From positions 1 through 64,000 of the forward strand of contig CALUHR010000009.1 in the NCBI GenBank assembly GCA_944320495.1: a DNA stretch of 64,000 nucleotides, given 5' to 3'. Under the pieces are notes generated by a model, which was given only the letters and a program-made list of their open reading frames with translations, did not search any database and was not told where the DNA came from. Of the stretch, positions 18,952 to 56,718 are shown piece by piece. The DNA is from Candidatus Methanomethylophilaceae archaeon. Lineage in GTDB: Archaea > Thermoplasmatota > Thermoplasmata > Methanomassiliicoccales > Methanomethylophilaceae. How positions within the stretch are numbered: position 1 is the first letter of the stretch; every line of letters starts with the position of its first letter. The position numbers and the translations under genes are program-made.

Positions 18952-19053
18952 ATGGAGTTCGACATCGGAAACTTCGTAGCGATCATCGTGGCAGGAGCCA
19001 TCTACTACGTCATCCTCGCCATCGCCAACCGCAAGAGGGCAAGTGAGCAGTGA
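18952..19053 (+). CDS. Small single-TM protein, 33 aa (not in ORF track)
   Basis: MEFDIGNFVAIIVAGAIYYVILAIANRKRASEQ; its TGA overlaps the next ATG (TGATG). Confidence 0.6.
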   Translation: MEFDIGNFVAIIVAGAIYYVILAIANRKRASEQ

Positions 19054-19451
19054 TGAACCAGCTGCCCGAGAACGTAGTGAGGATGCTCAGGCATCCCGAC
19101 ACCAACAAGGTCCTGTCTATGGTGTCGCCGGACGGCTTCCCCCACAGCATCGTGCTGGGCGCCGTCATCGTCGGTGACGACGACCGGATCTATGTCGGAG
19201 AGGTCTACATGTACCGCTCCTCCCAGTATCTCGAGGCCTGTCCCAAGGCCGAGTTCCTCGTGTGGAAGGGGAAGGAGGGATACTCCCTCAGGGTGGAGGC
19301 CGAGGGTCGCATCACCGAGGGACCGGAGTTCGATCGTCTGAGCGAGGTTCTGGGCAGGAAGAACATGCACGTCAACGCTCTATGGGTCTTCAGACCGTCC
19401 GAGGTGTGGGACGAGAGTGCCTCGTACACCTCCGGCGACAGGGTCGTGCGA
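19053..19451 (+). CDS. Pyridoxamine 5'-phosphate oxidase-like FMN-binding protein
   Basis: VLSMVSPDGFPH split-barrel motif. Ends at in-frame CGA 19449-51 overlapping the next ATG; standard-code end is 19478. Confidence 0.75.
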
Positions 19452-19675
19452 TGGACATCGCCCGCACCCGCAAACTGAGCGGGTTGCTCGCAGCCCTCTC
19501 CGCCGTATGCATATGCATCGGCGGCATACTCTTCTTCACTGGCTCGGAGGCGGCGGGGATAATCCTGATCGTCGCCTTCGTCGTTGTGCTCGTCCTGTGT
19601 CTGGGCATCAGGAGCTTCATCAGGGCCTTCGCCTTCGAGAACATGAGACGCGGTGCCGGAAAGGATCGAGAATGA
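19451..19675 (+). CDS. Small 2-TM membrane protein
   Basis: MDIARTRKLSGLLAAL... with two hydrophobic helices. Confidence 0.65.
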   Translation: MDIARTRKLSGLLAALSAVCICIGGILFFTGSEAAGIILIVAFVVVLVLCLGIRSFIRAFAFENMRRGAGKDRE

Positions 19676-19718
19676 AGGAAATCGTTTTCATCGGAGGCCT
19701 TCCGGCCCCCGATTGTTC

Positions 19719-19889
19719 TCAGTACCTGCTCCTGTCGGCAGGCTGGTGCTTCCTGAAGCAGTCCCTGCAGTAGACGGGCCTGCCCTGAGTGGGCTTGAAC
19801 GGGACCTCGCACTCCTTGCCGCAGTCGGAGCAGACCGCTTTGAAGAACTCCCTGGGCTTGTCGTTGTCCCTGTAACCACCGTATGCCAT
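19719..19889 (-). CDS. CxxC-x17-CxxC zinc-binding protein
   Basis: KAVCSDCGKECEVPFKPTQGRPVYCRDCF family signature. Confidence 0.85.
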   Translation of the reverse strand: MAYGGYRDNDKPREFFKAVCSDCGKECEVPFKPTQGRPVYCRDCFRKHQPADRSRY

Positions 19890-20027
19890 GTTGTTTTCTC
19901 CTCGGGTTCGAGGTATCCAATAAATCCCCGACTCTGAGCGAGCGGAGGTTACCAAACGCCTCGGCACCGAATCATCGTCCATCTATTTAACGAAGACAAT
20001 ATGATTCCCAGCGGTCGGGAAACCCTG

Positions 20028-20939: not shown

Positions 20940-20954
20940 CCGACCCACGTCCCT

Positions 20955-21176: not shown

Positions 21177-21334
21177 TTTGCCACCTGGGGGCGCCAATCC
21201 GCCGTATATTTATTAACATTAGGCTGGACGTGACGAAGGGAATCCCGCAATGATTATACGCCCCGTCATCAGTTCTCCGAACGGTTGGTGTAATTGGCTC
21301 GAAATATGGCACCGTCGGAGTGTGTTGACAAGAG

Positions 21335-23524: not shown

Positions 23525-23624
23525 GTGACCGCGATTCGTATTCTCGATATTAATCTGGGGGTGCCAGGACTCTATCATTCGAATAGTAACCTTTATATCA
23601 TAGCTACATATCCTGGGGTTTGCT

Positions 23625-24176: not shown

Positions 24177-24542
24177 TCGTTTCTCGCCCCTCTTCTCGGC
24201 TTCAATGTCGTTCAATGTACCTGGAGACACCGTCTCCAGATGTCTGTCTATGATTCCGGCGGCCTGCTCGACCAGGGCGGCGACCTCCATTCCATTCTCG
24301 GTTATGATCCACTTGCGTGCCTTGTATCCGCGGGTTCTGGCGTCGGGGTACTCGCTCCTCAAGAGCCCGCACTCCTCCAGCATGAGCAGGCGGGAGCGCG
24401 CCATGTCGTAGCTCCTGGTGATGTCATCCCTCACATCGACCTCCTTGACGGACCCGCGATGGTAGATGTATAGCAGGATCGTCGCGGCGTGCTTCTTCCC
24501 CAGCACCTGGATTCCGGTCAGCTGTTCCGTTTCCGAAGTCAC
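24177..24542 (-). CDS. Winged-helix (HxlR/MarR-like) transcriptional regulator
   Basis: VLGKKHAATILL...RLLMLEECGLL...WIITENG. In-frame CGA at 24177-79; standard TGA is 5 codons later at 24162. Confidence 0.75.
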
Positions 24543-24770: not shown

Positions 24771-27700
24771 ATGATTCAAATCGAGAAAAGGAGGATCGCC
24801 GCCGCACTCGCGGTGCTGGCGGTTGCTGTCGTGGCGATGGGAATCGTGGCGGAGGCCTCGGATTCCCAGGCCGACGACCATGTTTCCATCCCCGCCCCTC
24901 TAGCAACGGAGGTGCCCGGGCTCACCGCGATCGAAGCAGCGTTCGATGCTGATGGAGAGACCATCGACACGTCCATGTTGCCTGAGGACCTCAAAAAGTA
25001 CCTCACCGTTACAGGAACGGTCAATGAGGTGGAAGTAGAGCTGACTTCGGCGCAGTACGATGTCACTACGGATTCTGGGTTCCTGACCCCGGGGGACTGC
25101 ACAGTTACCATCTCATCAGGTGAGATCTCAGACACCGTGACCGTTGCGAATGTTCAACCAGTTGGCATCTCAAACCTGGAATTCAACACCGATGACCTCG
25201 GACAGGTCTTTGTTACCACAGATAATGAGACTGTTGGCGAGAAGGTGACAGTAACCGCTGTATTCTCCAACGGTGTGAGACAAACTCTCTCCCCGGACAT
25301 GTACACAGTTAACTTCAACAAGGATGTCGGAACACAGACGTTCAGCATCTCGGTTAACTTCAATGGAGAGAACATTCCTGGCTCCTTCACCTACGAGGTC
25401 TCTGAATTGGAGATGACTGGTCTGAGGGTCGATGTAGGGGGGAGTAGTGAATTTACAACGAGCATGAACTCGTACCGTTTGCATGATGCCCTGGCTGTTT
25501 ACGGAACATTCAACGATGGGAACGAGTACAGACTGCCTGCCTACGGATTCGACTATGAGGTTGAGGGATCCCTGCTGGCCGGCCCCACAGAGATAGAGGG
25601 TCCGTACCCAGCGACAATCACTGTAACACCCAGCGACAACGACTCCGAAGCCCAGCCCGTGGAGACGACCATCCAGGTTACTCCCGTTAAATTGGAACGT
25701 ATCAGCGCCGAAGACCAGAGGATGGGCTCTTATCAGGCGTACACGACGGTCGATAACGGCTCGGAGTGGTTCTCAGTAAGAGCATACTTCGTGGATGGGA
25801 ATTCGACAAATCTGTCAACTGGCGATTATTCAATAACATACGAGGGCGTCGGTGAAGGTGAGCCGCAAAGCTTCAGATATGGCCATGGGACCATAACCGT
25901 GCATTTCACGGAAAATGGAATAACGAAGACCGATACCATCTCGGGATACAATGTCACACGGGCTCTCGTGGAATTGCCCGATCTGAACACCGGTACGATC
26001 TCCTATGGCGACACAGCGGATTGGCTTATGACCGGCTTCGACGACAGGCTTCGGATCACCACATCTGAGGGGCTGAGTTACTCCGTGGACCCCAACGATG
26101 ATACGAGACTGCATTTCACTGCGACCGAGGCGGGGAAGTACACGGTCGTCGTGAGCCCTCTGAACGACAGCATAGTGCTTGTCCAGCGTGGTACGGACGA
26201 CCCCCTCTTGGAGGGTGAGGTGAACCAGTACACGTACACCCTGACAATCTCCGCCGCCCAGTACGACATAGAGCTCACCCTCGACGATGACATAATCGCT
26301 GGGGAGAGCGGATATCTGACGATCGAGCTGACGGGTCCGAACGGGGAGTCCGTCCCGCTACCAAGTGTGATATCGTACAGATACTCCGGGACCAACATGC
26401 TGGGGAAGCCCATCGAAGGTACGGGACTTCCGACGGATGCGGGAACATGGAATGTGTACGTGACGGTCCCTGCGAGCGGGAACTTCAGGGAGACCGGAAA
26501 ATACACCGGGGATTTCATCATAGACCGCGTGGTCCATGGAGCTCCGACACCGGTGGGCATCCCGTACGACGGGGTTGCGCATTCGGTCGAGTTCGGCACC
26601 GGCGTCGACACCTCGTTCTTCGAGGTCACGGGGGACGAGCACACCGATGTCGACGAGGGCTACGAAAGCACCCTCATCATCAGCGACGATTGCTGGAACA
26701 ACCACTGCTGGACCGGAGGCGAGAGGTCTGTAGTCGTCTATTGGAACATCGTCCAATCTCCCAATGACTTCACCGAGAAGCCATCCATCACGGGATGGGA
26801 TTTCGATGAGAGCCCCAACAGCCCTTCCGCGAAAGCGACGTTCGGCGATCAGAGCGGGATCGTATTCACGTTCTCCCAGAGCAGGGACGACGCCGATTCA
26901 TACAGGACCATGGACGAGATAGAGGTCTGGTCGGCGGGTACGTGGTACATGAAGGCCACCTCGCCAACCGATGGGCGGAACTACACTTCGGTCACATCAG
27001 AACCTCTTGAGTTCCAGATCGGCAAGATGCAGGTAGACTATCCTGCTGAGGACACCTCGACATTCGTATACACCGGCGGCACGCTGTCCTACAACCCCTT
27101 AGGATTTGATGAGTCGTTCATGACGATGACCGTCACCCAGAACGGTTCGACCTTAGAAGACGTCACGAACGCGGGGACGTACACCGTGACAGTCACCCTT
27201 GACGGGAACCATGAGTGGGACACGTCTTCGGCCCACGGGGACCTGAACGATGAAGGAGACCCGACGTTCACATGGACCGTCGGAACAGCGGAGAACACCG
27301 TCGAATCGTTCGACATATCGGGCTGGACATACGGCAGCGGCATCAACACACCCTCGAACGTCGTCATGTCGTTCAGCGATGACTACACGGTCGAGTACTC
27401 CAGAAGCCGTGATGACGGTTTCCGCCCTGCGAACGAGATAAGCTCCTGGGATGCGGGGACGTGGTACGTCCGCGTCACCTCCGGGTCATCCGACAACTAC
27501 ACCTCGGATCAACTGACTAAGAATATCGTAATCGCCAAACTCGCCGTAGACTATCCATCCGAGGACGCTAGTGACTTCGAATACACCGGCGGCACGCTGT
27601 CCTACAACCCCTCCGGATTCGATGAATCGTTCATGACGTTGACCGTCACCCAGAACGGTTCGACCTTAGAAGACGTCACGAACGCGGGGACGTACACCGT

Positions 27701-30700
27701 GACCGTCACCCTTGACGGGAACCATGAGTGGGACACGTCTTCGGCCCACGGGGACCTGAACGATGAAGGAGACCCGACGTTCACATGGACCGTCGGCAAG
27801 ATGGGGATCGATGCAGGCCTGAATCAGAGGGACTTCACGTTCAACGGAAGCCCCCAGACCCCTACGATAACCGGCGACAGCACGCAGTTCTCTGTCAAAT
27901 GGGAGAACCAGGAGTCCACAGTGATTGATTCTTACGAGGTCTATCTGACCCTCAATGACAAGACGAACTACGAATGGGACCACGATGGGGAGCAGTACGG
28001 GGACTCCGTCTCCGGAGACGTCCTCACCCTCGTGTACAGGATAGTCGGCCAGACCTACGACCTGACGATCCAGATCGGAGATGGAGGGAGCGACGTGTCC
28101 TGGACGTACGGGAACGCGCATCTGCAGGTGAGTTGGAACTCGGACATACCCACGGAGATATCCGAGAAGCTGAAGGACCAGGACGATTACGGGAGCGGTT
28201 GGTTCTACGTGTTCAACGGCATAGACGGTACCGAGTACTACGGTAAAGACTGGCCCACCGATGCGGGAAGCTACAGCGTGTACCTGTTCATATCAGACAC
28301 GGGGATCTATGCGAACAAGACGTCCAACACCGTCACGTTCTCGATCGACCCGGCCAAGATTACCGAGCACGATATCGAGGACCACGGCTGGACCTACGAC
28401 GCTCAGTCCCACTCCGTCCTTTTCGACGGTGAGGAAAACATCGTCCCAAATGCTACAACGGTCGATGGTACGACTCCGACATGGTCGTACTCCATGTCAT
28501 CCGACCCTTACGAGTGGGGTACACCATTCCAGATAACCAAGTCGGGAACCTACACCGTCTGGTACAGGGTGTCCGCAGAGAATCATGAGACCATCATCGA
28601 CAGCTTCACACTGACAGTTGGAAAGGCCGAAATCACTGGAATCGTCATACCCGGGGGAGATTGGACCTATGATGGTGAGTATCACGGTGCGATGTGGAAC
28701 GGGGAATCCGACGGAGTGCCGAGCGGCTCCGCCTTGGGGAATGACATCTCCTGGACGTACAAAACCGATGTGAACGGGGAGTTCACCGGTGAGATACCGA
28801 CATTCAGGAACGCGGGAACGCACACAGTCTACTATAGAGCGGATGCGGATAACCACGACCCTGCCTACGGGTCCTTCGAGGTCCATGTAGGGAAGAGGAC
28901 GATCGACCTCGCCTTCAGTACCAACACCAGCGTGTACTCCAACTCCGAACCGTCCGTCCAGGGATGGGACTTCGAGCTCGACGGGTCCGACGTATGCTCC
29001 GGGGACAGCCTGGACACCCTCACGAACCTGGTCGGGATCTCCCTGGAGCAGGGAGTGACCAGATGGAACGTCGGATACTACGACCTTGTCGCCACCATCT
29101 CGGACACCAACTACGAGCTTAGATACGACGGGTCCGATAAGTTCGAGATCACGAAGCGGCCGCTGTCCCTCGAGGATGCCACGATCGTCTATGGGGACGA
29201 GGCTCCTGGACTGTCCGCTATCATCGGCAACATCGCCAACGGTGACACGATCGACGATGCCGTCACCGGGACGGCCGACCTCGACGGGTACGTTCCGGGA
29301 TCCGACTATGGCCGGTATAAGATCGCTGTGGGACAGCTCGCTGCAGGCGCGAACTACTCCATCGATCCATCGGAGACTGCGACGCTCACGGTGAGCCAGC
29401 GGCAGATCACCGTGGAGATCCAGAACGACAGCAGCACCTACGGCGACGCCATAGACGCCCTAGAGGGGATCGTCATCGATGGAAACCTCGCCCTCGATCA
29501 CACCGAGACGGACGTGTTCAAGCTGTACCTCACCGACGAGGGAGACAGCGGCGAGATAGACATCTCCGTGACGGTGAACGCTGGGACCTACCACATACAT
29601 GGAACTGTGCTGAACAACAACTACGCCATCAGGTTCTTGGGCAAGTCCGACGGCGGAACGGAGCCCGCTCCGGAGTACGGGACGTACATCGTGAACCCGC
29701 GGTCGGTCACGATCGAGATCGTGACGGAGAACGGGAGCATGGACTACACCGGCGACCCAGATGCAGTGTTAGAAAAGGTATCCAGCATGTTCAGGGTCGA
29801 CAACGATCCAGATTCGAACTTCCCCGAGCCGGATTTCGTGTTCATGAAGGACGATGATGAACTGGGCCAAATCCCGACGGATGCGGGAAAGTACACCGTC
29901 AGACCGGTCTACAGCAGCAACACCAACTACGTCCCTAGCTCGGACCTGAAGGCGACGTTCACGATCAACAAGATCGACTACGACCTCCCGACCCTCGGAT
30001 GGGACGTCATGAACGATGGGAACTCCGTGAGCGTGACCGAGTACAACGGAGGGGAATACACTGCAGTCCTCTCCTCGGAGAGCACGAGGTTCACCGACGG
30101 ATCGACCGTCATCACGGGCATCGATGACTCCAGGCTGACAGTGAGCTATTCTATCGTGCACGAGGGCCCCACCGTCGGAGGGGCCGTCGATGCGGGCACC
30201 TATGTAGTGACAGCCACGTTCCATTCGGACAGCGGGAACTACAACATCCCTGAAGACATGACGTATGATCTCGAGGTCCAGCCCGCACAGGTGACCATCG
30301 TCTGGGAACCAACCGGCGACCGCTTCACATACGACGGAACCGACCAGAAGTCCGAGGTCACCGCGCACTACGTCGACGTGAAGGGGATTGATATACCTCT
30401 GACGGTGACCATCGAAGGGACGTTCGAGATCCCCAGGACGGAGGCCTACGTCTTCACGGCAGGGTTCAGCGACAGCGACACCGGGAAGGGGAACTACGCC
30501 CTCCCTGACAATCCGACCAGGAGCTACTACATGGACAGGATGCCTGTCACGATCAGCGTCTCCGACCAGAAGGTGCAGTACGGGGATCTGCTTGACGCCT
30601 CCGGATGGTCCTACGAGTTCACCGACGGAACGATACTCGAGAAGGATCTGGAGGAGGGCGGATACGTACAGCTGTACGTCGACAGGAACGTCACCGGGGA

Positions 30701-33700
30701 CAACCCCCTCCCCGCGGATCAGGCGTATGCTGATGCGATAAAGTACACGATTCAGCTGAGGAACGAGTACTACGACATCACCCCTGAGTACGGCGACCTC
30801 AAGGTCACTAAGCGCTCGATCGTGATCACGATTCCAACCATCGAACGCACGTATGATGGCCAGCCGGCAGACCTGGGAACCCTCACGGACATATAGCAGT
30901 ACGTCACAGACGGCTCGATCCTCACATCAGACAACATACTGAGCCTGACGCTATGCTACGGGGAGGGTGGCACCGGCGATGCGCCCACCGACGCCGGCAG
31001 TTACGAGGACATGGTCTGGTGCATATGGAACAACGAGCGCTACGACGTCGATGTGATCCCTGGGGACCTGGTGATCAAACCCGATTCCCTGGAAGTGACC
31101 GTAAACCCCGAGAGGCCCAGTGCCGAGTTCAACGATGAACAACAGAGTCCGAACGTGGGGTACACGGTAACTGGAACGAACAGCGGGATCAGCTTAAGCT
31201 CCGAAGTCTACACCGTAGGGTACAGGATCGGCGATGCCTGGGTGGACGAGGCCCCATCGTTCACCGATGTCGACGAGTACACCATCACCTACAAGATAAC
31301 GCCCGACAGCAACAACTACCTCCCCTACGAGGGCAGCTTCATATTCGTGATCACAGGAACGACGAACAGCTTCACGACCGAGTTCGACCAGGACGACTGG
31401 ACCTACAGGGAGGGCAAGGGAACAAGCGTGGAACCCGTCTCGAAGTTCGGAAACCCAACGGTCAGGTACTACACCGACCCGAATCACACCGAGGAGTACA
31501 CGGGAGGGATGGACAATGACACCCCTGCGGGGACGTACTACGTGGTCGTCAGCGTTCCCGCCGACGGGGACAACTATCCGGAACTGACAGGTTACTACGA
31601 GTTCACCGTCAACAGGGCGACCCTCCATTATGAGTGGGACCAGACGATGAGCATCACGTACACCGGCGATGACATCACCAACACCCTCACCGTGGACCAT
31701 TGGTCCGTGAACGGTGTCGGCGAGGCGATCGCGGTCGGCGGGACCGGGGAAAGCGTCGTCATGTACAGCAACCCCTCCGTCGACGTTACCATCGATAGCG
31801 GGAGACTGTCCATGACGGCGACGGATGTGGGCAGATACAGCGTCGTCCTGACCATAACCGATCCCAATTACATGTGGGACGGCGAGGATGCGGACACCCT
31901 CACCATCGAGACCGCATGGGAGATCGTGGAGGACCTCATGGAGAACGGCTGGACGGAGGATCCGGGGATCGACAGCATCGTCTTCGGTGAGATCCTGAGC
32001 CCGCGCGGGACTCCCGAGCATGGCACTGCAACGTACTACTTCTCGCGGTCTTCCAACCTGGAATCGTTCAACAGCACCGAGAGACCGACGCAGGCCGGAA
32101 CATACTACATGCTCGTCGTGGTCCGTGCAGTCACCGACGGAGGCGTCCATTACGAGAGGCTCGTGTCGGAACCTATCGAGTTCGAGATCCAGGTCAGGAC
32201 GATAGACGTCCCCAGCATCGTGTTCTCCACCAAGTTCTCACCAGGGGACGTGCAGACTGTCGATCTGTCCGACCTCGGAATGGACCCTGATGACCAGGCC
32301 TACGTGTCCATGAGCGGGGACAGCGGAACCTCCGCCGCCACGTACACGGCAATCCTGACCCTCACGGACAAGGTCAACTGCGCGTGGAACGTCGAAGGGG
32401 GCACTAGCACGGAGGACCAGTCCGTGCAGTGGACCATCACGCCTCTGGAGGTGGAGTTCGACACTGACGACTTCGGCAGCCACGACGATGACGCGTACTA
32501 CGACTACGACACTACCCTGAAGACGTACAACCCCAGCTTCTACGACTCCAAGTTCATGGACATCTCCGGCAACACGGGAAGGGATGCTGGCACATACACA
32601 GTCATCGTCACCCTGACATCGACCGACTACGTCTGGAAGGGCATCGAGGAGAGGTCCGTGACAGTCGGCTGGAACATCGATCCGAGAGCGCTGACGATGC
32701 CGACCCTCCGCTACGATACGATGGACGGCGCCAGCCTGGTCATCCCTTACGGGGGTTCCAGCATAACGGTGACCCTCAACGGGTTCGATGCCCAGACCAT
32801 GGGCATAGTCACCCACGGGACCACTGTCTCGTCGTCGGATGACGGCACGATATCGTCCACTGTGGGCATAGGAAGCTACAGTTTCGATATATCCCTGAAG
32901 ACCTCCAACTATGTGTGGGTCGGACAGGACGTTGACGTCAGGTCGATCCAACTCACTCTGAACGTCACGGCTAACCGCGTGGATGTGCCGGACGCGATGG
33001 AGAGCGAGTTCGAATACGACGGCGAGTCCCATTCGATCCTATTCGACGACACGTCGAACCTCATCATAGAGAACAATGTCCATACGAACGCCGGCACCTA
33101 TGTCGTCACGGTCCGTCCCGCCGAAGGATTCTACTGGCAGGACGGCACGTCCGACGCTGTCGAGTTCACTCTGACCATCGATAGAGTCACCGTCGTGATT
33201 ATGGTGGATGGGGACATAGAGGTCTGCTATGGGGAGGACATTCCCGAAATCGGATGGACCTACGCAGAGGGAAGCGACCGGTTCGTGAACGAGGATCTGA
33301 CGAACGGAACCATCGTGGTGACGATAATCCCAGGGGCCTCAAATGGAGATAATGTCGGAACATATCTGATACAAATGACGGCCGTTGCTGGCAACAACTA
33401 CATTGTCACCTGTCTGAATGGCAATCTGACAATCAATCCCGCGATAGTGGATGTGCCATCGGACATCGGGAACGTTCCCGGACTCGCCTACGACAGCGAT
33501 GGCGTCACGTTCGATCCTGCCATCCAGTGGGGTGATGAGTATGACGAGGGGACGATGTCCGTGAGCGACAACTTTGGCACCGACATCGGTGTACAGACCT
33601 CGTACCTGCACCTGAGGGATCCCATCAACCATGTCTGGAACACAGGAGCATCTGCCGACATCGAGTTCCATTGGGAGATCGTGAAGAAACCCGTGTCCAT

Positions 33701-35198
33701 CGTCATCCCAGACCAGGAGGGGTCTAATGTCCCAGGCGTGCCTGGACAGACTGTCGATCTCGGAGAGTACGAGGCGAGCGGAGAGCCTCTGGACATCGTG
33801 ATCGGAGGATTTGACAGCACCTGTATGCGTGTCGAATCGGACCCCGAGGGATGCTTCGCGATCGATCCCGTCACAGGCGTGATGACCATAACCGCCAAGG
33901 ACCTTGGGACATACACGATCCGCTTCTACCTGGTGGACGAGCACTACGAGTGGTCGTCCCCCACCAACTCCATCCTCATGACTCTCGCATCCCCGACACC
34001 AAAGGATGCTCTGATCATGACATTCACCTTCACGATTGTAGCGAATTCGGAAGGGGAGGAGTACACGGTCGAGGCGGGACACAATTCCCTCGTTTATGAC
34101 GGCGAGGAGCAGTCCTACGTACCAGATGGCTTCGACAGCGACCATATGACCCTAGGCGGGACCACGAATGCTACGATTCCAGGGACCTACACCGTGACGG
34201 TCACCCTGAAGGACCCCATCGACCGCTGGGGCTCTCTTGATGACGACGGGGATGGCACCATCTACATAACATGGACCATCACGAAGAGACCGGTCACGTT
34301 GACCGCCGAGAGTGGCAGCATGGCTCTCGGAGGAGACATGCCCGAACTGGACGTCCTCGGGACCGACGGTTTCGTCGACGATGGACTGGACGATCTCTTC
34401 ACGGTATCGTTCGACCTCGTCGACCCTGATGTCCCTGGGGAGTACACCGTCAGAGTCGAGAAGGTCGGTGACCATGCCGCCCTTGCCCACTACGACATTG
34501 AGTTCGTAGACGGTAAGATCCTCGTCATGTCGGGGGACTTCCGGGAACTCTTCGTCCTAGATGGCGTCACTGATCCGGAGACCTACAACGGTACGTACAT
34601 CACCAAGCCGATATCGTCCCCTCACCTCACTCTGGGGGAGGAGTACACCGTGACCTATGCCGACAACATAGACGTGGGGGTGGCGACCGTCACCATCACA
34701 GGATTGGGCAACTACTCCGACCAGAGCCTGTCCTTCCAGTTCGAGATCCTGAAGGCCGACCCGCCAATCAGGTTCGACCAGGAATCGGTGTCCAGATATC
34801 CCGATGACGGGTCCTTCACCAACCCCTTGGTGGTTCCCGACTATGTGGTGACCGAGGGTTCCGCTACGTACGTCAGCAGCGATCCATCCGTAGCATACGT
34901 GGACCCCGTGACCGGCCTTGTAACGACAGGTTCCGCAGGGACCGCGGTCATTACCGTGACGGTGCCGGGCACGGAGAATTACAACGATTCTACCGCCTGG
35001 TTCACGGTGATTGTCAGTAGCACCCCGATGGTCGTCATCCCTGGCGACGATGATGTCATCGTCCTTCCGGGACCCGAGACCGTGAAGTGGTATCAGAAGG
35101 ACATTTCCCTCTACATACTGCTGATCGTCATCCTCGTCGTCGGGTTCCTGCTGTACATCGTCTACACCGTGTGGAAGCGGAGGGGTGACGGGCAGTGA
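24771..35198 (+). CDS. Giant adhesin-like surface protein (Ig-like/MBG-like repeats), 3475 aa with one in-frame TAG
   Basis: Signal peptide, Big_3-like modules, many (N/D)AGTYTVTV modules, a Big_2-like module and a C-terminal TM followed by KRR. Track ORFs 24771..30896 and 31011..35198 share one frame, separated only by TAG at 30894-96. Confidence 0.85.
27033..27796 (+). repeat. Near-identical ~250-bp intragenic direct repeat
   Basis: 27033-27283 matches 27546-27796, with a 513-bp (171-codon) period. Confidence 0.9.
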
Positions 35199-35497
35199 GC
35201 GCACACGACTGCATGGCCCTGATCGACGTCCTGGGCGAGAAGCACGTGCTGGAGATGTTGCTCTTCCTCCGCGAGAACGGGACATGCAATAAGAGCCAGC
35301 TGTACAGCGCTGTCTCCCGCGGTGCACGTATGCCGGACAAGCTGGACATGATGGAGGTCGTCGGGCTCATCGTCATCGACAGCGTCGACGGCTCCAGGTG
35401 CCACCGCGTCTCCCTGACGGACCTGGGCCGGAGGGTGAGCGACTTCCTTCATGACCTGATGGATGGCGCGTCCAATCGTGACCCGGCTGTCGCCCGA
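35195..35497 (+). CDS. Winged-helix transcriptional regulator (paralog of 24177..24542)
   Basis: VLGEKHVLEMLL...VSLTDLGRRV. Ends at CGA 35495-97; the standard-code ORF runs through a hairpin to 35671. Confidence 0.75.
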
Positions 35498-39479: not shown

Positions 39480-40111
39480 GGGAGTACAACCTCTACCTCT
39501 TCGACTTCGACAACACCCTGTACGACACGAGCGCCGGCATCCACAGGATCCTCGAGGAGGTCCTGCCGGTCATCGGCGTGGATTACCGCAGGGAGGAGTT
39601 CACTAGGTACCTCGGGATGTCCATGGATGACATCTTCGACACGTATTCGAAGCGTCCGGACGCGTACGACGAGTATCGCTCCAGGTTCTACGATGCGGTG
39701 GCCACGAACTCCTACAGGGAGTCGGAGCCGTTCCCCGAGACGCTCCGCGTCCTGAGGGCCCTCAAGGACAGGGGCAAGCGCATCGGTATAGTGTCGGGGA
39801 AGATGCGCTACAAGATCGTGGACCTTCTGGAGGACCAGGGGCTCGGGGACATCCCCGAGACAATCGTGGGGTGGGACGACACCGACGCCCACAAGCCCGA
39901 CCCCGAACCGGTGGCGCTCGCGTTCTCGAGGTTCGACGTCCCCCGCGACAGGACGCTCTTCGTCGGCGACAGCTACAACGACGCCGGGGCTGCCAACGCC
40001 TTCGGTGTGGACTGCGCCATAGTCAAGCGTCCCGACGGATTCATGGCCGAGGACCTGCCCTGCAGGTACGAGATCCCCAGCCTGGAGGATCTGCTGGTCT
40101 GGGACGAGCGA
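39476..40111 (+). CDS. HAD-superfamily hydrolase (PGPase-like)
   Basis: FDFDNTL, HKPDPEP and FVGDS. Ends at CGA 40109-11; standard TGA is at 40132. Confidence 0.85.
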
Positions 40112-41185
40112 TCGCAGCATCCCCTGGGATGACAGCCTCATCAGCAGGTCCCGGGCCTCGCATATGCCGGACTCGGCGGACGCAGTGAGCAATCTTATCG
40201 CATCCCTGTCCGGCATCTCGATGCGTCCGGACAGTGCCAGGGCGCCGAGGTTGTACATGGCCGTCGGTTCTCCGGCATCCGATGCGCTCCTCAGCAGCGT
40301 CTCCGCACGTTCGATATCCCTGTCGATGAGCATGGATCCGAGCATCGACTGGGCGTAGACGAACCCGGCGTCGGAGGCCATCTCCATCCATTCCATCGCC
40401 TTGTTCTCGTCCCTCTCGCCGAGCGAACCGTCCATGAGCATCAGCGCGAGGTTGTACATCGCCTTGACGTCGCCGTCCAGTGCAGCATCTGTGAAGTATC
40501 CCTCCGCCTCCGCGAACTCACCGCGCTCGTAGAGGATCCCTCCGATGCACAGGCGGGCGTCGTTGTCACCCTGGTCCGCAGATGCGCGGAACCATCTCTC
40601 GGCCTCCTCGCGGTCGACGGGTATGCCGTCACCCGCGTCCAGCATCATGGCGAGATCGTACTGGGAGTCCGGGTCGCCCGCCTCGGCGGCCCTTCTATAG
40701 AGCTCCGCCGCGCGCGGCTTGTCCGGGAAGACGCCCTCGCCGGTGCGCAGGATATGGGCCAATATGCCGGCGGCCTCGGTGCTGGTGGACGCAGCCCTCT
40801 CGAGCCACATGACGGCCCTCTCCGGATTCGCCGCCACCCCGTTCCCTCCGCGGAGCATCGTCGCGGCGTTGATCATGCCCTTCTCGTATCCCGCCTCCGC
40901 GGCCCTCTCGAAGAGGGCGAGAGTCCGAGCGGGGTCGATGCCCATCATGATGCTCCCGAGGTTGCACATGGCCTTCGTGTTCCCGAGGTCGGATGCGCGC
41001 TTGAGGTACTCCGCGGCGGTGACCGTGTCCTGGGGGACGCCCTCGCCGACGATGTACATGTAGCCGAGCGACGACGACGCGTCCGCATCGCCCAGGTCCG
41101 AGGCCTGCCTGTACAGCTCGGCCGCCCTGCCGGGGTCCTGTTCGCGGACCTCGTCGCCCATCTTCCTGATCTCGGAGGCTTCCAT
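40112..41185 (-). CDS. Sel1-like repeat protein
   Basis: About nine SLR units (A..GD..A...LG.MY..G.G). Ends at CGA (40112-14); the standard-code ORF runs about 217 codons antisense through the HAD gene to 39461. Confidence 0.85.
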
Positions 41186-41256
41186 GGGGGCGGAGGATGG
41201 TCGGTTCACGCTTAACCTTTAGGATGATTGATATCGGGGATGCGCATGCAGGTCGC

Positions 41257-41587: not shown

Positions 41588-41866
41588 TTGGACCGTCGCG
41601 ACCTGGTGTTCGTGATCCTGGTGGTCCTGGTCGGGGTGTCCGCCCTTTCGGTCATAGCCTACATGCTGTGGCCCGAGGGGTCCATGCCCTTCCCGTTCGG
41701 ATTCCTCCCCTTCATCTTCCTGTTCTTCCCGATCATTATACCGCTGAGCTGGAGGGGCAAAGGGAGCGCGAGGGTCGAGGACCCTGACGACTACTGTCCC
41801 GGATGCGGATGTCCGCTCGATCCGGAGTACGACTTCTGCACCGTATGTGGCCGGAGAATACGCCGA
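41588..41866 (+). CDS. 2-TM membrane protein with C-terminal zinc ribbon (copy 2)
   Basis: TTG start; YCPGCG-x9-CTVCGRRI. Ends at CGA 41864-66 overlapping the next ATG; standard end is 41908. Confidence 0.7.
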
Positions 41867-42198
41867 TGCCGAGATGGGTCGGATGGGCGCTGCTGGCGGT
41901 CGGCATAATCTGGTTCTTCTGCTCGCCGGCGGTCATCGTGATCTACGGTCCGATAGGCATCCCCGTGCTCTTCGTCTCGTTCGTCCCTCTGATCCTGGGT
42001 TCCCTGATCATATCGGGGATGACCGGCAGATGGGCACCGCAGGTCTCCGTTCCAGCGGAGGATGCCCCGTCGGCCGAAGAGACGGACGGCGATGCCGACC
42101 TGGCCGCATCCGGATACTGTCCGTTCTGCGGATCGGTTGTCGAGGAATCCGACAGGACATGCGCCGTATGCGGAAGGTCGCTGCGCGGCAAGAGGCGA
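41866..42198 (+). CDS. 2-TM membrane protein with C-terminal zinc ribbon (copy 3)
   Basis: MPRWVGW...YCPFCG-x9-CAVCGRSL. Ends at CGA 42196-98; the standard-code ORF crosses a hairpin into the convergent gene (end 42327). Confidence 0.7.
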
Positions 42199-43746: not shown

Positions 43747-44511
43747 TCGTATCGAGGACGCCTCCCAGGGCGGCACCCAGGAGATCCCGTGGATGTCCAG
43801 GCGGTCGGGTGACACGATCACGGTCCTGTCATCCGGATGGCTCTCGAGATATTCCCTGAGGCTTCTGGCGTAGGCGCGGCTGCGAGGTTCGATCTGGACT
43901 GCGACCGCACTTCCATCCATGCTGTCGACGGTGAACGCCTCGGCGCGGTTGCCCGACCTCCAGCACGCGAGTTCCGGATGCACCCTGCGCATCTCGAGCA
44001 GGACTGCTGACACGGTCATGGCGTCCAGGAGGCTTTCCGGTTCGTAGCCGGGGGATGTTCCCGCCAGAACCCTCATGATCCCTGTGTCCGAGCAGAGCAG
44101 GATGGAACCCGCCCGAGATCCCTTCGAGAATATCGGGATCTCGACCGTGGCACCGGAGCTCTCCAGCGCATCCAGCGGTCCGCGCAGGTCCCTGAGGCGG
44201 AGCCCCGGGGAAACGCTCCCGTACATGAACTTCCGGTTGTTCCCCGACAGCTGCCTCGGTATGCTGCGGAGGATCCACAGGCATTTGGCGGAGAAGGCCT
44301 CGCCCCGCTCATCCGCGATGGAGTCCTCGAGATCATCCAGGATACATGAGAGCACCTCGTCCACGGAAGCGATGTCGCGCGTCTCAGCCCAGGCATCCAC
44401 GGCCTTCGGGATGCCGCCTACGGCGATGTATTCGTCGAAAAGCGTGCGCATGTCCGCGGGACCGTCCGATCCGTCGGCACCCAGCCTGGAGACGAACTCT
44501 CCGAACGGCAT
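43747..44511 (-). CDS. DUF4143-type ATPase-associated protein lacking the N-terminal AAA domain
   Basis: MPFGEF, YIAVGGIP, NRKFMY, SDTG and WRSGNRAE. Ends at CGA (43747-49), 37 nt before the aminopeptidase start; standard-code end is 43210. Confidence 0.6.
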
Positions 44512-44621
44512 GGGGTCGGGGATGCCCCGGAGTGGACTTGGTGTCGAGCGTTGCACAAGTTGCGCAACGATGAGCAACCTAAAGAATGATGGCCCGGGGC
44601 GGATGCCCCGGGTGAAGAGGT

Positions 44622-45398
44622 TCAGATGGCTCCGCAACCTTTGGCGGCGCCGATGCACTCCTGGCATCCGTCCCCGATCTTGGGGAGGCCGCGCTCCAGG
44701 AGCATGAGGACGTTGTTGAGGCACTCGGCCATTGTCCTGTTTACCATGTCGATGTCCACGGGCTCGTCCTTCCAGACGTCATAGTCCGTGATGGTGGCGA
44801 GGCTGCAGTAGCACAGGCCGAGCTCCCTGGCGAGCTGGCACTCGGGGACCACGGTCATGCCGATGATGTCGGCGAAGTGCCTGAACATGTTGCTCTCCGC
44901 CATGGTGGAGAACCTGGGTCCTTCGATGCAGAGGTAGGTTCCTCCGAGGTGGTGCTTGAGGCCGAGCTCGGTGGCCGTGGCGTCGAAGATGCCGTTCAGA
45001 TACGGGCAGAACGGGTCCGGGATGGAGATGTGGACCGCCCTGTCGTCGAAGTAGGTGTAGTCGCGCCTCTTGGTGAAGTCGATGAACTGGTCGGCGATGA
45101 CGAGGTCCCCGGGGGCGTAGTCCTCCTGCAGGGATCCGACGGCGCAGGCGGAGATGACGTACTTGCATCCCAGCTCCTTCAGCGCCCACATGTTGGCCCT
45201 GTAGGGGACGTTGGTCGGGGGGTGCTGGTGCTGCTTGCCGTGGCGGTAGAGGAACGCGACCTCCACGCCGTTAATCCTGCCTATGAGTATGGGGTCGGAG
45301 GGTTTGCCGTACGGGGTGTCGGGGAAGACCTCCTCGATCATCTCGAAGGTGTCCGGGTTGTAGATCCCGGTGCCTCCGATGATAGCTATCTTGGGCAT
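44622..45398 (-). CDS. mtnP: S-methyl-5'-thioadenosine/-inosine phosphorylase
   Basis: IIGGTG, RHG, NMWAL, EGPRFST, GMTVVPE and TDYD. Confidence 0.92.
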   Translation of the reverse strand: MPKIAIIGGTGIYNPDTFEMIEEVFPDTPYGKPSDPILIGRINGVEVAFLYRHGKQHQHPPTNVPYRANMWALKELGCKYVISACAVGSLQEDYAPGDLVIADQFIDFTKRRDYTYFDDRAVHISIPDPFCPYLNGIFDATATELGLKHHLGGTYLCIEGPRFSTMAESNMFRHFADIIGMTVVPECQLARELGLCYCSLATITDYDVWKDEPVDIDMVNRTMAECLNNVLMLLERGLPKIGDGCQECIGAAKGCGAI

Positions 45399-48093: not shown

Positions 48094-48510
48094 TCGGGCC
48101 CTCTCGGAGACGATCTCGTTGGACGTCACGATGTTGAGGCGCGGGCAGTCGGCGCAGATGCCGAGGTCCCCGCTGTATCCCTCGAAGACGTACAGCGCCT
48201 TCAGCAGGCCGCTCTCCTTCACGAAGTTGCAGATTCCGCAGAGCGACTCGGTGACGTCCGCTCCGTTGGAGATCTCGTCGGCCATCCTGGCTATCTCGGC
48301 GTAGAAGTCGTCCTTGTAGGCGCTGCGGTCGATCAGGTTGTTCCCGCCCCGCATGCCCTTGAGGTACTGGGACACCGCTGCGCTTGTGACGCCGAAGAGC
48401 TTGGCCACCTGTGTCTGGGTCATGCCGTGGCTGGTCACCAGGTCCCTGGCGAGCGCTCCGCGCGCTGTGGGCAGAATGTGTGTGACTATGAGCTCGCACG
48501 GCATCTTCAT
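48094..48510 (-). CDS. HTH transcriptional regulator (COG2522-like)
   Basis: PCE, MTQTQVAKLFGVTSAAVSQY and C-terminal CxxC motifs. Ends at CGA (48094-96); the standard TAA at 48067 is part of the hisB TATA box. Confidence 0.8.
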
Positions 48511-50453: not shown

Positions 50454-50458
50454 TCCCA

Positions 50459-51499
50459 TTGGGGGCCACAGCCGGGCGCGAGCTATACCGCAGGATGACG
50501 AGCCGCAGGGTCGCGATGATAGCGATGTTGGCGGCGATGGCGGTGGTACTGTTCGTAGTGAACTGCACATTCTTCATGAGATGGAGCCCGCTGGAGGCCC
50601 TCCAAACCATATTCGACCCGGGTTCGGTGAGCAGGTCGCTGGATTCGGTGGTCTGGAGCTATCGCATCCCCGAGAGCTGCTTCGCCGTACTGGTGGGGGT
50701 GGCCCTCGGGATGGCCGGTGCTGAGATGCAGACGGTTCTGAACAACCCCCTGGCGGAGCCCTACACCCTGGGGATATCCATGGCGGCCGCATTCGGAGCC
50801 GCCCTGGTGATAGGCTTCGGGTTCGGGACATCGTTCCTGGGCGGCTATGCGATGATCGTCGGGGCGTTCCTCATGTCCATGGTGGCCTGCGGGGCGATCT
50901 ATGCCGTCTCCAGGAGGAGGGGATCGTCGAGGACCACCATCATACTCACCGGGGTGGCGATGCTGTTCCTGTTCCAGGCCCTGGTGAACGCCGTTCAGTC
51001 CCTGGGTGGTAAGGAGGTGTCCAATTCCATCACTTTCTGGATGTTCGGCAACCTGGCCAGGTATCCGGACGAGATGGGATACGTGCTCGTACTGCTCATC
51101 GTCGTGGTCCTTGTGGCGGCGCTGTTCGCCATGAACATGTGGAAGCTCTCAGCGCTGAAACTGGGGGATGCCAAGGTCTACAGCATGGGCGTGGACGCTT
51201 CCAGGCTCAGGAGGAACACGATCATCGGGATATCGGTGGTCACGGCGGTCGCTGTCAGCTTCACCGGAACCATCGGATTCGTCGGGCTCGTGGGCCCCCA
51301 TGTGGCCAGGATGCTCGTGGGGGACGACCAGCGCTTCCTTCTGCCGATGTCCGCGCTTTGCGGCGCGGTGTTCCTCTGCGCCTCCTCCGTGCTGATCAAG
51401 GGGCTGGACCTCAGTCTCCCGGTGGGTGTGGTCACATCTCTGATCGGCGTTCCGTTCTTCCTCTATCTCGTACTGACTCGCAGGAGGTCGCTGGCATGA
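50459..51499 (+). CDS. FecCD/BtuC family permease
   Basis: YRIP, QTVLNNPLAEPYTLGIS, WMFG and GFVGLVGPH. Start is TTG 50459 or ATG 50495. Confidence 0.92.
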   Translation: MGATAGRELYRRMTSRRVAMIAMLAAMAVVLFVVNCTFFMRWSPLEALQTIFDPGSVSRSLDSVVWSYRIPESCFAVLVGVALGMAGAEMQTVLNNPLAEPYTLGISMAAAFGAALVIGFGFGTSFLGGYAMIVGAFLMSMVACGAIYAVSRRRGSSRTTIILTGVAMLFLFQALVNAVQSLGGKEVSNSITFWMFGNLARYPDEMGYVLVLLIVVVLVAALFAMNMWKLSALKLGDAKVYSMGVDASRLRRNTIIGISVVTAVAVSFTGTIGFVGLVGPHVARMLVGDDQRFLLPMSALCGAVFLCASSVLIKGLDLSLPVGVVTSLIGVPFFLYLVLTRRRSLA

Positions 51500-52263
51500 C
51501 ACTCAGGACCGTGAATCTGAGTTTCTCATACGGCGGAGACCGGATACTGAGGGAGGTGTCGATAGAGGCCGGTTCCGGGGTCACCGCCCTGTTGGGTCCG
51601 AACGGTGCGGGGAAGTCCACGCTAGTGAAGTGTCTGTCGGGAGTCATCCGCCCGGATGGGGGTACGGCCGAATTCAACGGCATTGACCTGCTGGATACTC
51701 GTCGCGGAAGTCTTAGAATGGGCTATCTGGCACAGGATCTTCCGGCGGTCTCGGAGACCAATGTTCTGGAGATGATGCTCCTCGGGAGGATCAACTCCCT
51801 CGGCCTCGAGGTGGGCGTGGAGGACCTGGACAAGGCTTACGGCGCATTGGAGGACGCCGGCATAGAGGATCTGGCGGCCAGGGACTTTAATGAACTCAGC
51901 GGTGGGCAGCGTCAGATGGTCATGGCCGCCCAGTGTCTCGTCGACGATCCCGATCTGATAATACTTGACGAGCCGACGAACAACCTGGACATCCGCAGGG
52001 AGTTGGATTTGTTCGAGATGATGACCCGTTACACGGAGGAGCACGGCATCACCACACTGATGGTCCTGCACGATGTGAATTATGCCTCCAGGTTCGCGGG
52101 AAATGTCGTCGTTATGAGGGATGGCAAGGTGTATTCCACCGGCACTCCTGAGGAGGTCATCACGGAGGGGATGCTCCGCGATGTCTACGGCGTCGAGGCC
52201 AAAGTGGGGAGAGATGTCTTCGGGAATCCCCATGTGGAGGTCCTCCATTCGATCCGTCTCCGA
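51496..52263 (+). CDS. FecE/BtuD family ABC ATPase
   Basis: GPNGAGKST, LSGGQRQ, DEPT and LHD. Ends at CGA 52261-63 (255 aa); the standard code fuses it in frame to the next gene. Confidence 0.88.
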
Positions 52264-52302
52264 TCCCATTCCACAGTCCAAACACGATCGGAAGTGTATG
52301 TT

Positions 52303-54099: not shown

Positions 54100-55844
54100 C
54101 CCTCAGGGAATACGCCATGCGCAGGTTCGCCCTGTCTGAGAACGGATATCTTAATCTGAAGCGCAGCACATTGGCGGTCATCCTGCATGACATCAGTCTG
54201 ATCGTACCGGTGATGATCCTGTTCATGCTCGTGTGCGACGTCATGGGCGACAACCCATACGATTTCGGGCTAGATCCTTGGATGTACATCGCTCTGTGCG
54301 TCGTGTCTGTGGCGCTGATGTATGTGACGTACCAGCATCAGTATAATCGCACGTACTTCGACACCTATGTCGAGAGCGCGGAGGTCCGCATCTCCCTGGC
54401 GGAGAGAATAAGGATGCTTCCCCTCTCGTACTTCTCCAAGAAGGACCCTACGGATCTGACGGTCCGCATAATGGGTGATGCCACCATGCAGGAGTCGGCC
54501 ATGACCCATTGGTTCCCGGAGCTCATCGGGGCGATGATCTACACCGTCGTCATGGGAGCGTGCATCATCGTGTTCTCACCCGCCATGGGTGTGGCCTCCC
54601 TATGGCCGGTGCCGTTCGCGTTTGCCATCGTCCTCCTGTCCAAGAGGGTCCAGAGGAGGTTCGCCGACACCAAGAACCGCAGGATGCTGGAGGTCACAGA
54701 GGGAATCCAGGAGTGTCTGGAGTGCCTGAGGGATCTGAGGGGCAACAATGCCGCGAATTCTTACGCGGAAAGACTCTTCTCCAGGATGGACAGGGTCGAA
54801 GGCAGTGAGATCCGCTCCGAGCTCGCCACCGCCGTGTTCGTGGTGGGGGCCCAGCTGCTTCTCAAATTCGGCATCGTCACCACAGCCGTGGTCGGAGGGA
54901 TCCTGCTGATCGATGGATCGATCGACGTAGTAGTTTTCCTGGCGTTCCTGATATTGATCTCCAGGCTCTACGATCCGTTGAACACGGCTCTGCAAAACCT
55001 CGCCGCGATGATCTCCGCGGAGTACAACATGGAGCGTATGCAGGAGATCAATGATCAGCCCGTGATGACTGGGACGACCGATTTCCGTCCGGACGGCTAT
55101 GATATAGTGTTTGACCAAGTCGGATTTTCATACGACGGAGGGGTCACGGTGTTGGGGGACGTATCCTTTACGGCGAAGCAGGGTGAGGTCACGGCGCTGG
55201 TGGGTCCCAGCGGCAGCGGTAAGTCCACGGCAGCGAAGCTCGCCGCCAGATTCTGGGATGTAGGCTCCGGAAGGATAACCATAGGGGGCGTGGATGTCTC
55301 GACGGTGGATCCGGAGACTCTGCTGTCGTGCTTCTCGATCGTCTTCCAGGATGTGACGCTGTTCAACACCACGGTGATGGAAAACATCCGCATCGGTAGA
55401 CGCGGGGCCACTGACGAGGAGGTCCTTGCTGCAGCGAGGGCGGCCAACTGTGACGAGTTCGTGTCCAGGCTTCCGGACGGGTATTCGACTGTCATCGGTG
55501 AGAACGGTGCCAAGCTATCGGGTGGTGAGAGGCAGAGGGTGTCGATCGCTAGGGCGATACTCAAGGACGCCCCGATCGTTCTGTTGGACGAGGCGACAGC
55601 CTCGCTCGATACAGAGTGCGAGACCCAGGTTCAGCATGCGCTCTCCATCCTTGTCAGGGGCAGGACCGTCCTCATCGTGGCGCACAGGATGCGCACGGTG
55701 GAGGGTGCCGACAGGATCGTGGTGCTATCTGGCGGGAGCGTATCCGAGCAAGGTTCCCCGAGAGAACTGATGGAAGAGGATGGGCAGTTCGCCCGCATGG
55801 TCTGCATTCAGCGGTTCTCGGACGAGTGGTCCATCAGGAGCTGA
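54096..55844 (+). CDS. ABC half-transporter (TMD-NBD), IrtB/YbtQ-like
   Basis: GTG start overlaps the upstream TGA; GPSGSGKST, LSGGERQR and DEATA. Confidence 0.88.
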   Translation: MTLREYAMRRFALSENGYLNLKRSTLAVILHDISLIVPVMILFMLVCDVMGDNPYDFGLDPWMYIALCVVSVALMYVTYQHQYNRTYFDTYVESAEVRISLAERIRMLPLSYFSKKDPTDLTVRIMGDATMQESAMTHWFPELIGAMIYTVVMGACIIVFSPAMGVASLWPVPFAFAIVLLSKRVQRRFADTKNRRMLEVTEGIQECLECLRDLRGNNAANSYAERLFSRMDRVEGSEIRSELATAVFVVGAQLLLKFGIVTTAVVGGILLIDGSIDVVVFLAFLILISRLYDPLNTALQNLAAMISAEYNMERMQEINDQPVMTGTTDFRPDGYDIVFDQVGFSYDGGVTVLGDVSFTAKQGEVTALVGPSGSGKSTAAKLAARFWDVGSGRITIGGVDVSTVDPETLLSCFSIVFQDVTLFNTTVMENIRIGRRGATDEEVLAAARAANCDEFVSRLPDGYSTVIGENGAKLSGGERQRVSIARAILKDAPIVLLDEATASLDTECETQVQHALSILVRGRTVLIVAHRMRTVEGADRIVVLSGGSVSEQGSPRELMEEDGQFARMVCIQRFSDEWSIRS

Positions 55845-55855
55845 AACATAAAAAC

Positions 55856-55880
55856 GGGCCCCTTCGGGGGTCCTTTCTTC
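55856..55880 (+). terminator. Hairpin terminator of ABC operon
   Basis: GGGCCCC-TTCG-GGGGTCC followed by TTTCTTC. Confidence 0.65.
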
Positions 55881-56040
55881 TGTAGGTCGAGGGGATGCTG
55901 GGCCATTGGCGGACCCCGAACGCACTCCAATGGCAACGACCTCCATGCAGGCGTGCGCGTGCTTTCCGTTATTGGCGTCCAGATCCTCGAGATCGTCTGG
56001 GCAGTCTCCGATTTATACCATGCACACCACTCCGCCCTCC

Positions 56041-56718
56041 ATGGACAGGGACGAGGTCCAGAGGGTCAAGACCAAGCCGACGCTGGCTGATTTCGCCGAG
56101 ATGACCCTCGCCGTCTTCATAATGGCTCTGGGCGTCATCATCACCGTCAGGTCCCTCCAGGGCGTCTCCCCGGTGTCGTCCCTCACATACGTCCTCAGCC
56201 AGGTCGCCGACGTCTCACTGGGGACGATGACGTTCATCGTCTACTTCGTGTTCGTCCTGTTCCAGTGCGCCGTCTACAGGGACAGGGGTATGACCATCAG
56301 GGTCTTCAGCCAGCTGCCGTACACGATCCTGTACAGCGTCTGCATGGATGTGCTCGATTACGCGCTCGCGCCGCTCAGCGCGGAGACGCTGGCGGGCCAG
56401 TGGGGGCTCGTCCTGATCGGATGCATGCTCACCAGCCTGGCCATCGCCATGGAGGCGGACGCGAACGTGTCGATGCTCCCGGACGACGGTCTGATGCTCG
56501 CGGTCCACAGGGCCACGAAGATCCCCCTCGGCAGGAGTATCATCGTCGTGAACATTGTGTCCATAGCGGCGGCCTTCGCCATCTCCCTGGGTGTCCTGGG
56601 AGGATTCTACGGGGTCGGTCTGGGAACGATATTCATGGCCATCGCCCAGGGGTACATAGTCAAGGCGATGACGCCGATGTTCAGAAGGTTCCGCAAGCAC
56701 GGCCATCTGGATCTCCGA
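56041..56718 (+). CDS. YczE/YitT-like membrane protein
   Basis: GVSPVSSL and GLGTIFMAIAQG in a multi-TM protein; TTTATA lies upstream. Ends at CGA 56716-18; the standard-code ORF runs antisense through hisA to 57663. Confidence 0.75.

Follow-up and report, generated by a model that had tools for sequence, protein, structure and literature searches.

The stretch of DNA analysed here (the window) comprises 64,000 nucleotides, positions 1–64000 of contig C9 in assembly G000, which totals 1.77 Mb in 14 contigs at 62% G+C. The source organism belongs to the Methanomethylophilaceae (Methanomassiliicoccales), and to the genus of Ca. Methanoprimaticola sp. MG2. A preliminary description of the window had singled out eleven genes in which the codon CGA stands at or near the expected C-terminus, and had proposed that CGA terminates translation in this archaeon. 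All eleven codons are present and in frame, and each closes a gene-like frame.

The first of these genes, encoding a PNPOx-like protein (19050–19451, plus strand), ends at CGA 19449–19451, the final A of which is also the first base of the next ATG (a CGATG overlap). The small open reading frame (ORF) that begins at this ATG (19451–19669, plus strand) is a tentative gene with its own end at CGA 19667–19669. The gene at 24177–24542 (minus strand; CGA 24177–24179) is the weakest case, as had been recognized at the outset, with a TGA five codons later. A small gene 3′ of an adhesin-like gene (35195–35497, plus strand) ends at CGA 35495–35497, with the next standard stop 58 codons on. The HAD hydrolase gene (39476–40111, plus strand) starts in an ATGA overlap and ends at CGA 40109–40111, the point at which its orthologues end with TGA or CGA. 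It converges on a Sel1-repeat gene (40112–41200, minus strand; CGA 40112–40114), and the two end back to back at 40109–40114, sharing the palindrome CGATCG with no spacer. Genome-wide, 14% of CGA stops have TCG directly after them, so that shared palindromic ends may be common. Two zinc-ribbon genes follow (41588–41866 and 41866–42198, both plus strand), the first ending at CGA 41864–41866 in a CGATG overlap with the second, which itself ends at CGA 42196–42198. The remaining sites close a gene of unknown family (43747–44724, minus strand; CGA 43747–43749), a helix-turn-helix (HTH) regulator gene (48094–48510, minus strand; CGA 48094–48096), an ABC ATPase gene of 255 codons that begins in an ATGA overlap at 51496 (51496–52263, plus strand; CGA 52261–52263) and a DUF6198 gene (55906–56718, plus strand; CGA 56716–56718).

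Upstream of the eleven CGAs the coding part is free of TGA, TAA and TAG, and continuing to the next standard stop would add between 5 and 315 codons. The expectation that the standard code would fuse genes or run antisense is borne out: the ABC ATPase would be fused with the next ABC gene at 52261, and the extensions lie antisense to neighbouring genes at 40114 (minus strand; 217 codons for the Sel1-repeat gene), 43749 (minus strand; 179 codons) and 56716 (315 codons across an opposite-strand gene). Pfam matches in the window genes stop short of every one of the eleven CGAs; the HAD_2 match ends at residue 183 of 211, the Sel1 repeats lie before residue 366, and the zinc ribbons and DUF6198 behave likewise. 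The window has 24 in-frame CGAs that lie behind coding sequence; non-coding sequence comes after 22 of them, and coding sequence after none. Coding ends at CGA in the window far beyond chance. That no CGA occurs inside a gene, as had been stated, is true of the window; it does not extend to the whole genome, where aRF1, the GmhA–GmhB junction and one flavodoxin gene each contain one.

Genome-wide statistics were obtained from composition-based gene calls made for this analysis, which are not a curated annotation, with seven other codons treated as mock stops as a control. When codons were counted in coding cores (between two coding flanks) with no stop set assumed, CGA was the rarest of the 64, occurring 8 times in 214,215 codons, alongside TAA (9), TGA (40), TAG (100), CGG (327) and CGT (549). 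Once CGA was admitted as a stop, gene-like ORFs numbered 1,523, ending at TGA (1,055), CGA (370), TAA (50) and TAG (48); by these predictions, coding-shaped sequence ends at CGA in approximately 24% of the genes of G000. The G+C content at third codon positions (GC3) in the 30 downstream codons is 0.57 after CGA, TGA and TAA, 0.86 after TAG and 0.76–0.85 after the mock stops. The fall from about 0.8 to 0.58 comes directly after CGA, and no drop is seen after CGG, CGT, AGA, TCA or CCA. Along stop-to-stop frames of high GC3 the distribution of in-frame CGAs is U-shaped, with 813 in the first decile, 329 in the last and only 10–55 in each of the five middle deciles (0.3–0.8). A loose GC3 screen for internal CGAs returned 243 hits, mostly spurious, and a codon log-odds model was used instead. 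Of the 351 CGAs that lie behind coding sequence under this model, 324 give way to non-coding sequence and only three are followed by clearly coding sequence. CGATG stop/start overlaps of the operon type are found at 80 of the 370 CGA ends, and in 43 of these 80 the frame opened by the ATG is clearly coding.

The ends of orthologous genes point the same way. In the region 38.7–44.8 kb of the window, genes of congeneric species end at the same residue, some with TGA and some with CGA. When CGA-ended genes of G000 were paired with orthologues in five relatives (89 pairs), the stop of the relative was located within three codons of the CGA in 81 pairs, as TGA in 69, CGA in 10 and TAA in two; the same agreement was reached by 333 of 360 TGA-ended G000 genes. 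To judge from these alignments, terminal CGA is conserved between species and exchangeable with TGA. The claim that CGA ends coding is thus upheld both by the genome-wide drop in coding signal and by the presence of CGA at the TGA positions of orthologues. Near-absence from the inside of genes, correspondence with orthologue stops and a coding signal that ends at the codon are all marks of a sense-to-stop reassignment, and all are found for CGA in G000.

Relatives were sampled at 50–240 kb each, and the gene-end CGA signature was found in every one of the six species of the genus that were sampled, which are represented by independent assemblies. CGA accounts for 24% of gene ends in G000, 11% in G013, 8.5% in G018 (the sister species of G000, with 95% DNA identity, sampled at 50 kb), 7% in G008, 6.5% in G043 and 4.6% in G015. 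The G+C content does not account for the high share in G000, as G043 has 60.8% G+C yet only 6.5% CGA stops. Most of the other genera in the family treat CGA as a sense codon: an ORF-based test indicated this for the sampled genomes of genera g11, g12, g16, g17 and g23, and likewise for two other families. A sliding-window score of stop-likeness had pointed to a CGA stop in g16 and g23; this proved to be an artefact, the score being inflated by rare codons that lie just behind true stops. The trait may have a second lineage in genus g15 (G058:C1:100001-340000), since all four of the gene-like ORFs in which CGA comes first have non-coding sequence after it, in what is a small sample; in this genus CGA and CGG are both almost missing from coding sequence.

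The codon TAG follows a different course. A PylS gene is located just outside the window (G000:C9:67854-68522) and scores above the family cut-off, and the coding signal goes on past in-frame TAG, as the GC3 of 0.86 illustrates. By both these marks of a pyrrolysine code TAG behaves as sense, putatively as pyrrolysine, in G000, in agreement with the stop set of TGA, TAA and CGA first proposed. The adhesin-like gene of the window (24771–35198, plus strand) consists of open frames of 2,041 and 1,433 codons (24771–30893 and 30897–35198) that are linked in frame by a single TAG (30894–30896), and its sole Pfam match, an MBG_3 domain, lies near the junction. Because the coding signal continues past in-frame TAG genome-wide, this gene is read here as encoding one protein, probably of about 3,475 residues with pyrrolysine.

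Two changes in the translation apparatus had been suggested in the preliminary description to accompany the trait, and neither is supported. The first, loss of tRNA-Arg(UCG), is contradicted by a gene for this tRNA at G000:C13:413317-413390 (plus strand), beside the GCG, CCG, UCU and CCU species, and the gene was found in five genus members, G000 included. The loss of the cognate tRNA that would mark a sense-to-stop reassignment is therefore not seen in G000 or in the four other members. What does distinguish the tRNA is its anticodon stem: pair 31–39 is mismatched in all five (A-A, U-C and three times C-A), whereas other genera have a Watson–Crick pair at this position. In G000 alone, U32 and C38 also stand in place of C32 and A38. 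The 31–39 mismatch may lower the competitiveness of tRNA-Arg(UCG). A weakened anticodon stem has a counterpart in the tRNA-Trp with a 4-bp anticodon stem that reads UGA in trypanosomatids and ciliates (summarised in PMC13092985), where a shortened stem likewise goes with a shifted balance between tRNA and release factor. There, however, the altered tRNA gains a stop codon, whereas in the genus studied here the change affects the cognate tRNA, whose codon would move towards stop.

The second suggestion, an altered aRF1, fares no better. G000 has one aRF1 gene (G000:C2:85936-87165, minus strand), and one further, weak match to the eRF1 family, probably Pelota. The NIKS, YxCxxxF (as YRC) and GGQ motifs of aRF1 are intact; its gene ends at a standard stop, and the longer open frame in G000 extends on the 5′ side. 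The only unusual feature is a G-to-S change in the GTS loop (RGRGTE to RGRSTE, residues 25–30), which was found only in G000 and G018, first among 28 and then among about 90 sequences. This change is not a requirement for the trait, as G013, G008, G015 and G043 lack it yet stop at CGA, although it may go with the higher usage of CGA in G000. The loop serine is shared by G000 and G018, yet the CGA share is 24% in the whole of G000 and 8.5% in the 50-kb sample of G018.

The log-odds scan left three CGA sites that are flanked on either side by strongly coding sequence, and a few candidates that are weaker. Codon 78 of the aRF1 gene is a CGA, aligned to an arginine that is conserved in all relatives. 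A single CGA is present in each of the 44 distinct aRF1 genes of the genus, at codon 78 in 42 and at codon 11 or 25 in the other two; the remaining arginine sites alternate between AGG, CGC, AGA and CGT, and codons in the neighbourhood of position 78 vary. Elsewhere in the same gene, Arg186 is encoded by CGT in 44 of 44 distinct genus genes, though AGG is the preferred codon. No conserved RNA element was found beside codon 78, the flanking synonymous sites being no more conserved than the rest of the gene. The bacterial prfB gene is autoregulated through an in-frame UGA at a frameshift site. Both prfB and aRF1 have, early in their own gene, a conserved codon that the encoded factor reads or would read, and in aRF1 this CGA has been kept against synonymous drift. 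Unlike prfB, the aRF1 gene shows no programmed frameshift at CGA78, as the frame runs on and CGA78 is aligned with arginine; escape would instead be by in-frame read-through by tRNA-Arg(UCG). It is plausible, from this pattern of conservation, that codon 78 serves as a feedback sensor of the release-factor level.

A second conserved site lies between GmhA (SIS) and GmhB (HAD), which are encoded in one frame across the whole family (G000:C13:193621-194700, minus strand). All 14 species of the genus examined have CGA as the linker codon, as against AAG or AAA (Lys) in other genera, where the gene is a plain fusion. The HAD nucleophile motif starts three residues past the CGA and no conserved start codon follows it, which implies that GmhB needs read-through. 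On the strength of this conservation, the linker CGA would give two products. The Flavodoxin_4 gene (G000:C8:55685, plus strand) has a single Pfam domain that spans an in-frame CGA, at a position where the closest orthologues encode arginine by other codons; this looks like a recent change, in a gene that would be either read through or freshly broken. Two other candidates for an internal CGA, an ankyrin ORF (C8:98215) and tandem flavoprotein genes (C1:9793), were rejected, as in both a new gene probably starts 2–4 codons later in the same frame. In an ORF of unknown family (G000:C5:178733, plus strand), the frame continues beyond a CGA through two predicted membrane helices to a second CGA; the ORF may encode a single protein made by read-through or may comprise two genes. 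With tRNA-Arg(UCG) present, 370 frames closed by CGA and in-frame conservation in aRF1 and GmhA–GmhB, CGA does not qualify as an unassigned codon in G000. The proposal that CGA terminates translation is supported for gene ends and has to be qualified elsewhere: CGA is not a pure stop, being conserved in frame at the aRF1 arginine and the GmhA–GmhB junction.

Several features of the terminal CGAs are those of a weaker stop. Their share of gene ends falls steadily with codon adaptation, from 41% in the lowest quintile to 7% in the highest (p = 2e-32). A backup stop lies in frame within three codons of 23% of CGA stops, compared with 13% of TGA stops (p = 9e-6). The base after the terminal CGA (the +4 base) is T in 54% of cases, in 41% when CGATG cases are left out and in 45% in the relatives, against 23% for all genomic CGAN; the conserved read-through CGAs are followed by C or G. 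A +4 base bias of this kind is known for stops that are read by release factors. Taken together, CGA looks like a leaky, context-dependent fourth stop that is avoided by highly codon-adapted genes.

We consider it likely, and hold with good confidence, that throughout the genus CGA acts as a fourth, weaker stop beside TGA and TAA, with TAG being sense. In the mechanism envisaged, the single aRF1, with its YRC motif, would read CGA as a near-cognate of UGA; this role for aRF1 is suggested because there is a single release factor, because of the +4 bias, and because yeast eRF1/eRF3 provide a precedent. The retained but detuned tRNA-Arg(UCG), with its mismatched 31–39 pair, would compete with aRF1 at CGA, and the codon would be read as arginine wherever the tRNA wins. 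Selection would exploit this read-through at aRF1 codon 78 and at the GmhA–GmhB linker, the latter yielding GmhA alone plus the fused GmhA–GmhB enzyme. T-to-C mutation of TGA under high G+C would spread CGA stops, mostly among weakly expressed genes. A further proposal, which we advance tentatively and think somewhat less likely to be right than wrong, is that the stop is deliberately leaky, with the release-factor level sensed through CGA78 of aRF1, the ratio of GmhA to GmhA–GmhB set by the linker CGA, and the tRNA kept mainly for these purposes.

A number of points weigh against CGA as a fourth stop. G000 keeps the cognate tRNA-Arg(UCG) gene, with a cloverleaf that is intact apart from the A-A mismatch at pair 31–39, and in about 90 aRF1 sequences no motif change sets the genus apart from those sister genera in which CGA is a sense codon. 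The reading offers no explanation of how aRF1 would take CGA while sparing CAA and CAG. Some false ORFs may be included in the lowest codon-adaptation quintile, and the excess of backup stops is partly confounded by CGATG overlaps. Finally, termination at CGA is itself something that we infer from sequence.

Of the other explanations, the one that survives best, although we regard it as improbable, is that CGA is poorly decoded and not read by aRF1, with stalled ribosomes being freed by rescue (aPelota/ABCE1 plus peptidyl-tRNA hydrolase, or unspecific aRF1). The near-absence of CGA inside genes, the weakened anticodon stem of the cognate tRNA and the Pelota-like second match to the eRF1 family are all in keeping with such stalling, and the yeast study discussed below treats release at CGA as rescue of slow decoding. 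A quarter of the genes, CGATG-coupled operon junctions included, would however have to rely on rescue, the +4 bias resembles that of stops read by a release factor, and the tRNA-Arg(UCG) gene has been kept and conserved.

Conversion of terminal CGA to UGA by C-to-U editing of the mRNA would account for the interchange of CGA and TGA at orthologous stops, and yet it is very unlikely. The editing would have to know the reading frame, given the approximately 41,000 out-of-frame CGA trinucleotides inside genes, and the in-frame CGAs of aRF1 and GmhA–GmhB, which align to arginine or lysine, must be sense. To our knowledge, no editing of such a kind is known in archaea.

Close to refutation is the view that CGA is a very rare arginine codon and that the CGAs at gene ends are tolerated stop losses followed by junk tails. 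The presence of tRNA-Arg(UCG), the rarity in coding cores of other A-ending codons such as TTA and CAA, and the backup stops that are often close behind would all fit. Contrary evidence comes from the TGA stops of the relatives. In 191 alignments to the exact end, G000 has TGA in 137 cases, CGA in 27, TGG in none and any other codon in at most three; the contrast of 27 CGA with zero TGG has a binomial p of 1.5e-8. TGG and CGA are both one AT-to-GC transition from TGA and should arise equally often if stop loss were tolerated, which is thereby excluded. In addition, the tails that NCBI translation table 11 would place beyond CGA reach at least 30 codons in 182 genes, at least 100 in 101 and at least 200 in 58, with a maximum of 624, and cross neighbouring genes, while CGATG start overlaps and the conservation of CGA stops between species also speak against junk tails. 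A sequencing or assembly artefact, or a modified base read as C, can be dismissed: nothing was found in its favour, identical codons carry the CGA in dozens of assemblies that come from different projects and were built by different assemblers, single-contig genomes included, and the sites have no motif in common beyond the +4 T.

The reading of CGA as a fourth stop can be set beside several known systems. Sense-to-stop codes are listed in NCBI tables 2, 22 and 23 and are all mitochondrial (AGA/AGG in vertebrates, TCA in Scenedesmus and TTA in Thraustochytrium). They share with G000 the use of a standard sense codon to end genes. They belong, however, to tiny genomes of a few dozen genes with their own translation systems, whereas G000 is the 1.77-Mb genome of a free-living (gut) archaeon, in which CGA is the codon concerned, its cognate tRNA has been kept and conserved sites still use it as sense.

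In yeast, eRF1/eRF3 compete with the arginine tRNA at CGA and release peptides there (Wada and Ito, 2019; PMC7379694), and the UGA-biased eRF1 variants L123R/F/Y of the YxC motif enhance this release (PMC7379694). An arginine at the x of YxC thus enhances CGA release in yeast, and the aRF1 of G000 naturally has YRC. Release at CGA in yeast is a weak side reaction seen in reporters, whereas in G000 hundreds of genes would normally end in this way.

Among archaea, a possible CGA stop has been raised for two Njordarchaeales assemblies in which CGG is read as tryptophan (Melnykov, 2026 preprint; 10.64898/2026.04.02.715157); stops lie outside what the method can infer, by the author's own statement, and the question is left open there. 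The likeness lies in an archaeon with CGA missing from recognizable domains. The Njordarchaeales are, however, another phylum-level lineage, with about 50% G+C, no tRNA(UCG) found and CGG reassigned as well, whereas in G000 CGG stays arginine-like, tRNA-Arg(UCG) is present and the gene ends themselves were tested.

According to two reports on methanogens, TAG is ambiguously or fully read as pyrrolysine (PMC12626013; 10.1101/2024.09.30.615893). These organisms are of the same family and have a codon read by both a tRNA and aRF1, and TAG is sense in G000 too, but those studies describe a stop becoming sense, whereas CGA in the present genus would be a sense codon becoming a stop. The term CGA is absent from the preprint on TAG as pyrrolysine (10.1101/2024.09.30.615893), the Codetta screen gave no match for Methanomassiliicoccales or Thermoplasmata terms, and a literature search returned nothing on CGA in Methanomethylophilaceae and no publication that establishes a CGA stop.

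If confirmed, this would be the first sense-to-stop code change in a free-living cell; established changes in free-living organisms are from stop to sense or swaps of one amino acid for another, and sense-to-stop changes are confined to a few mitochondria. It would also show a single omnipotent release factor extending its reading to a fourth codon, and would offer a natural template for the engineering of new stop or ambiguous codons. For annotation, table 11 calls would be wrong at a fifth to a quarter of the gene ends of G000 and at 5–11% in its relatives, and the resulting errors, namely false fusions and spurious tails that reach 624 codons, would enter protein databases and pangenome studies of gut methanogens. 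For the family itself, relatives with 5–24% CGA usage together with sister genera that retain the arginine reading would form a graded series of a codon changing its meaning, and the conserved CGA within the aRF1 gene would be a directly testable candidate for release-factor feedback in archaea.

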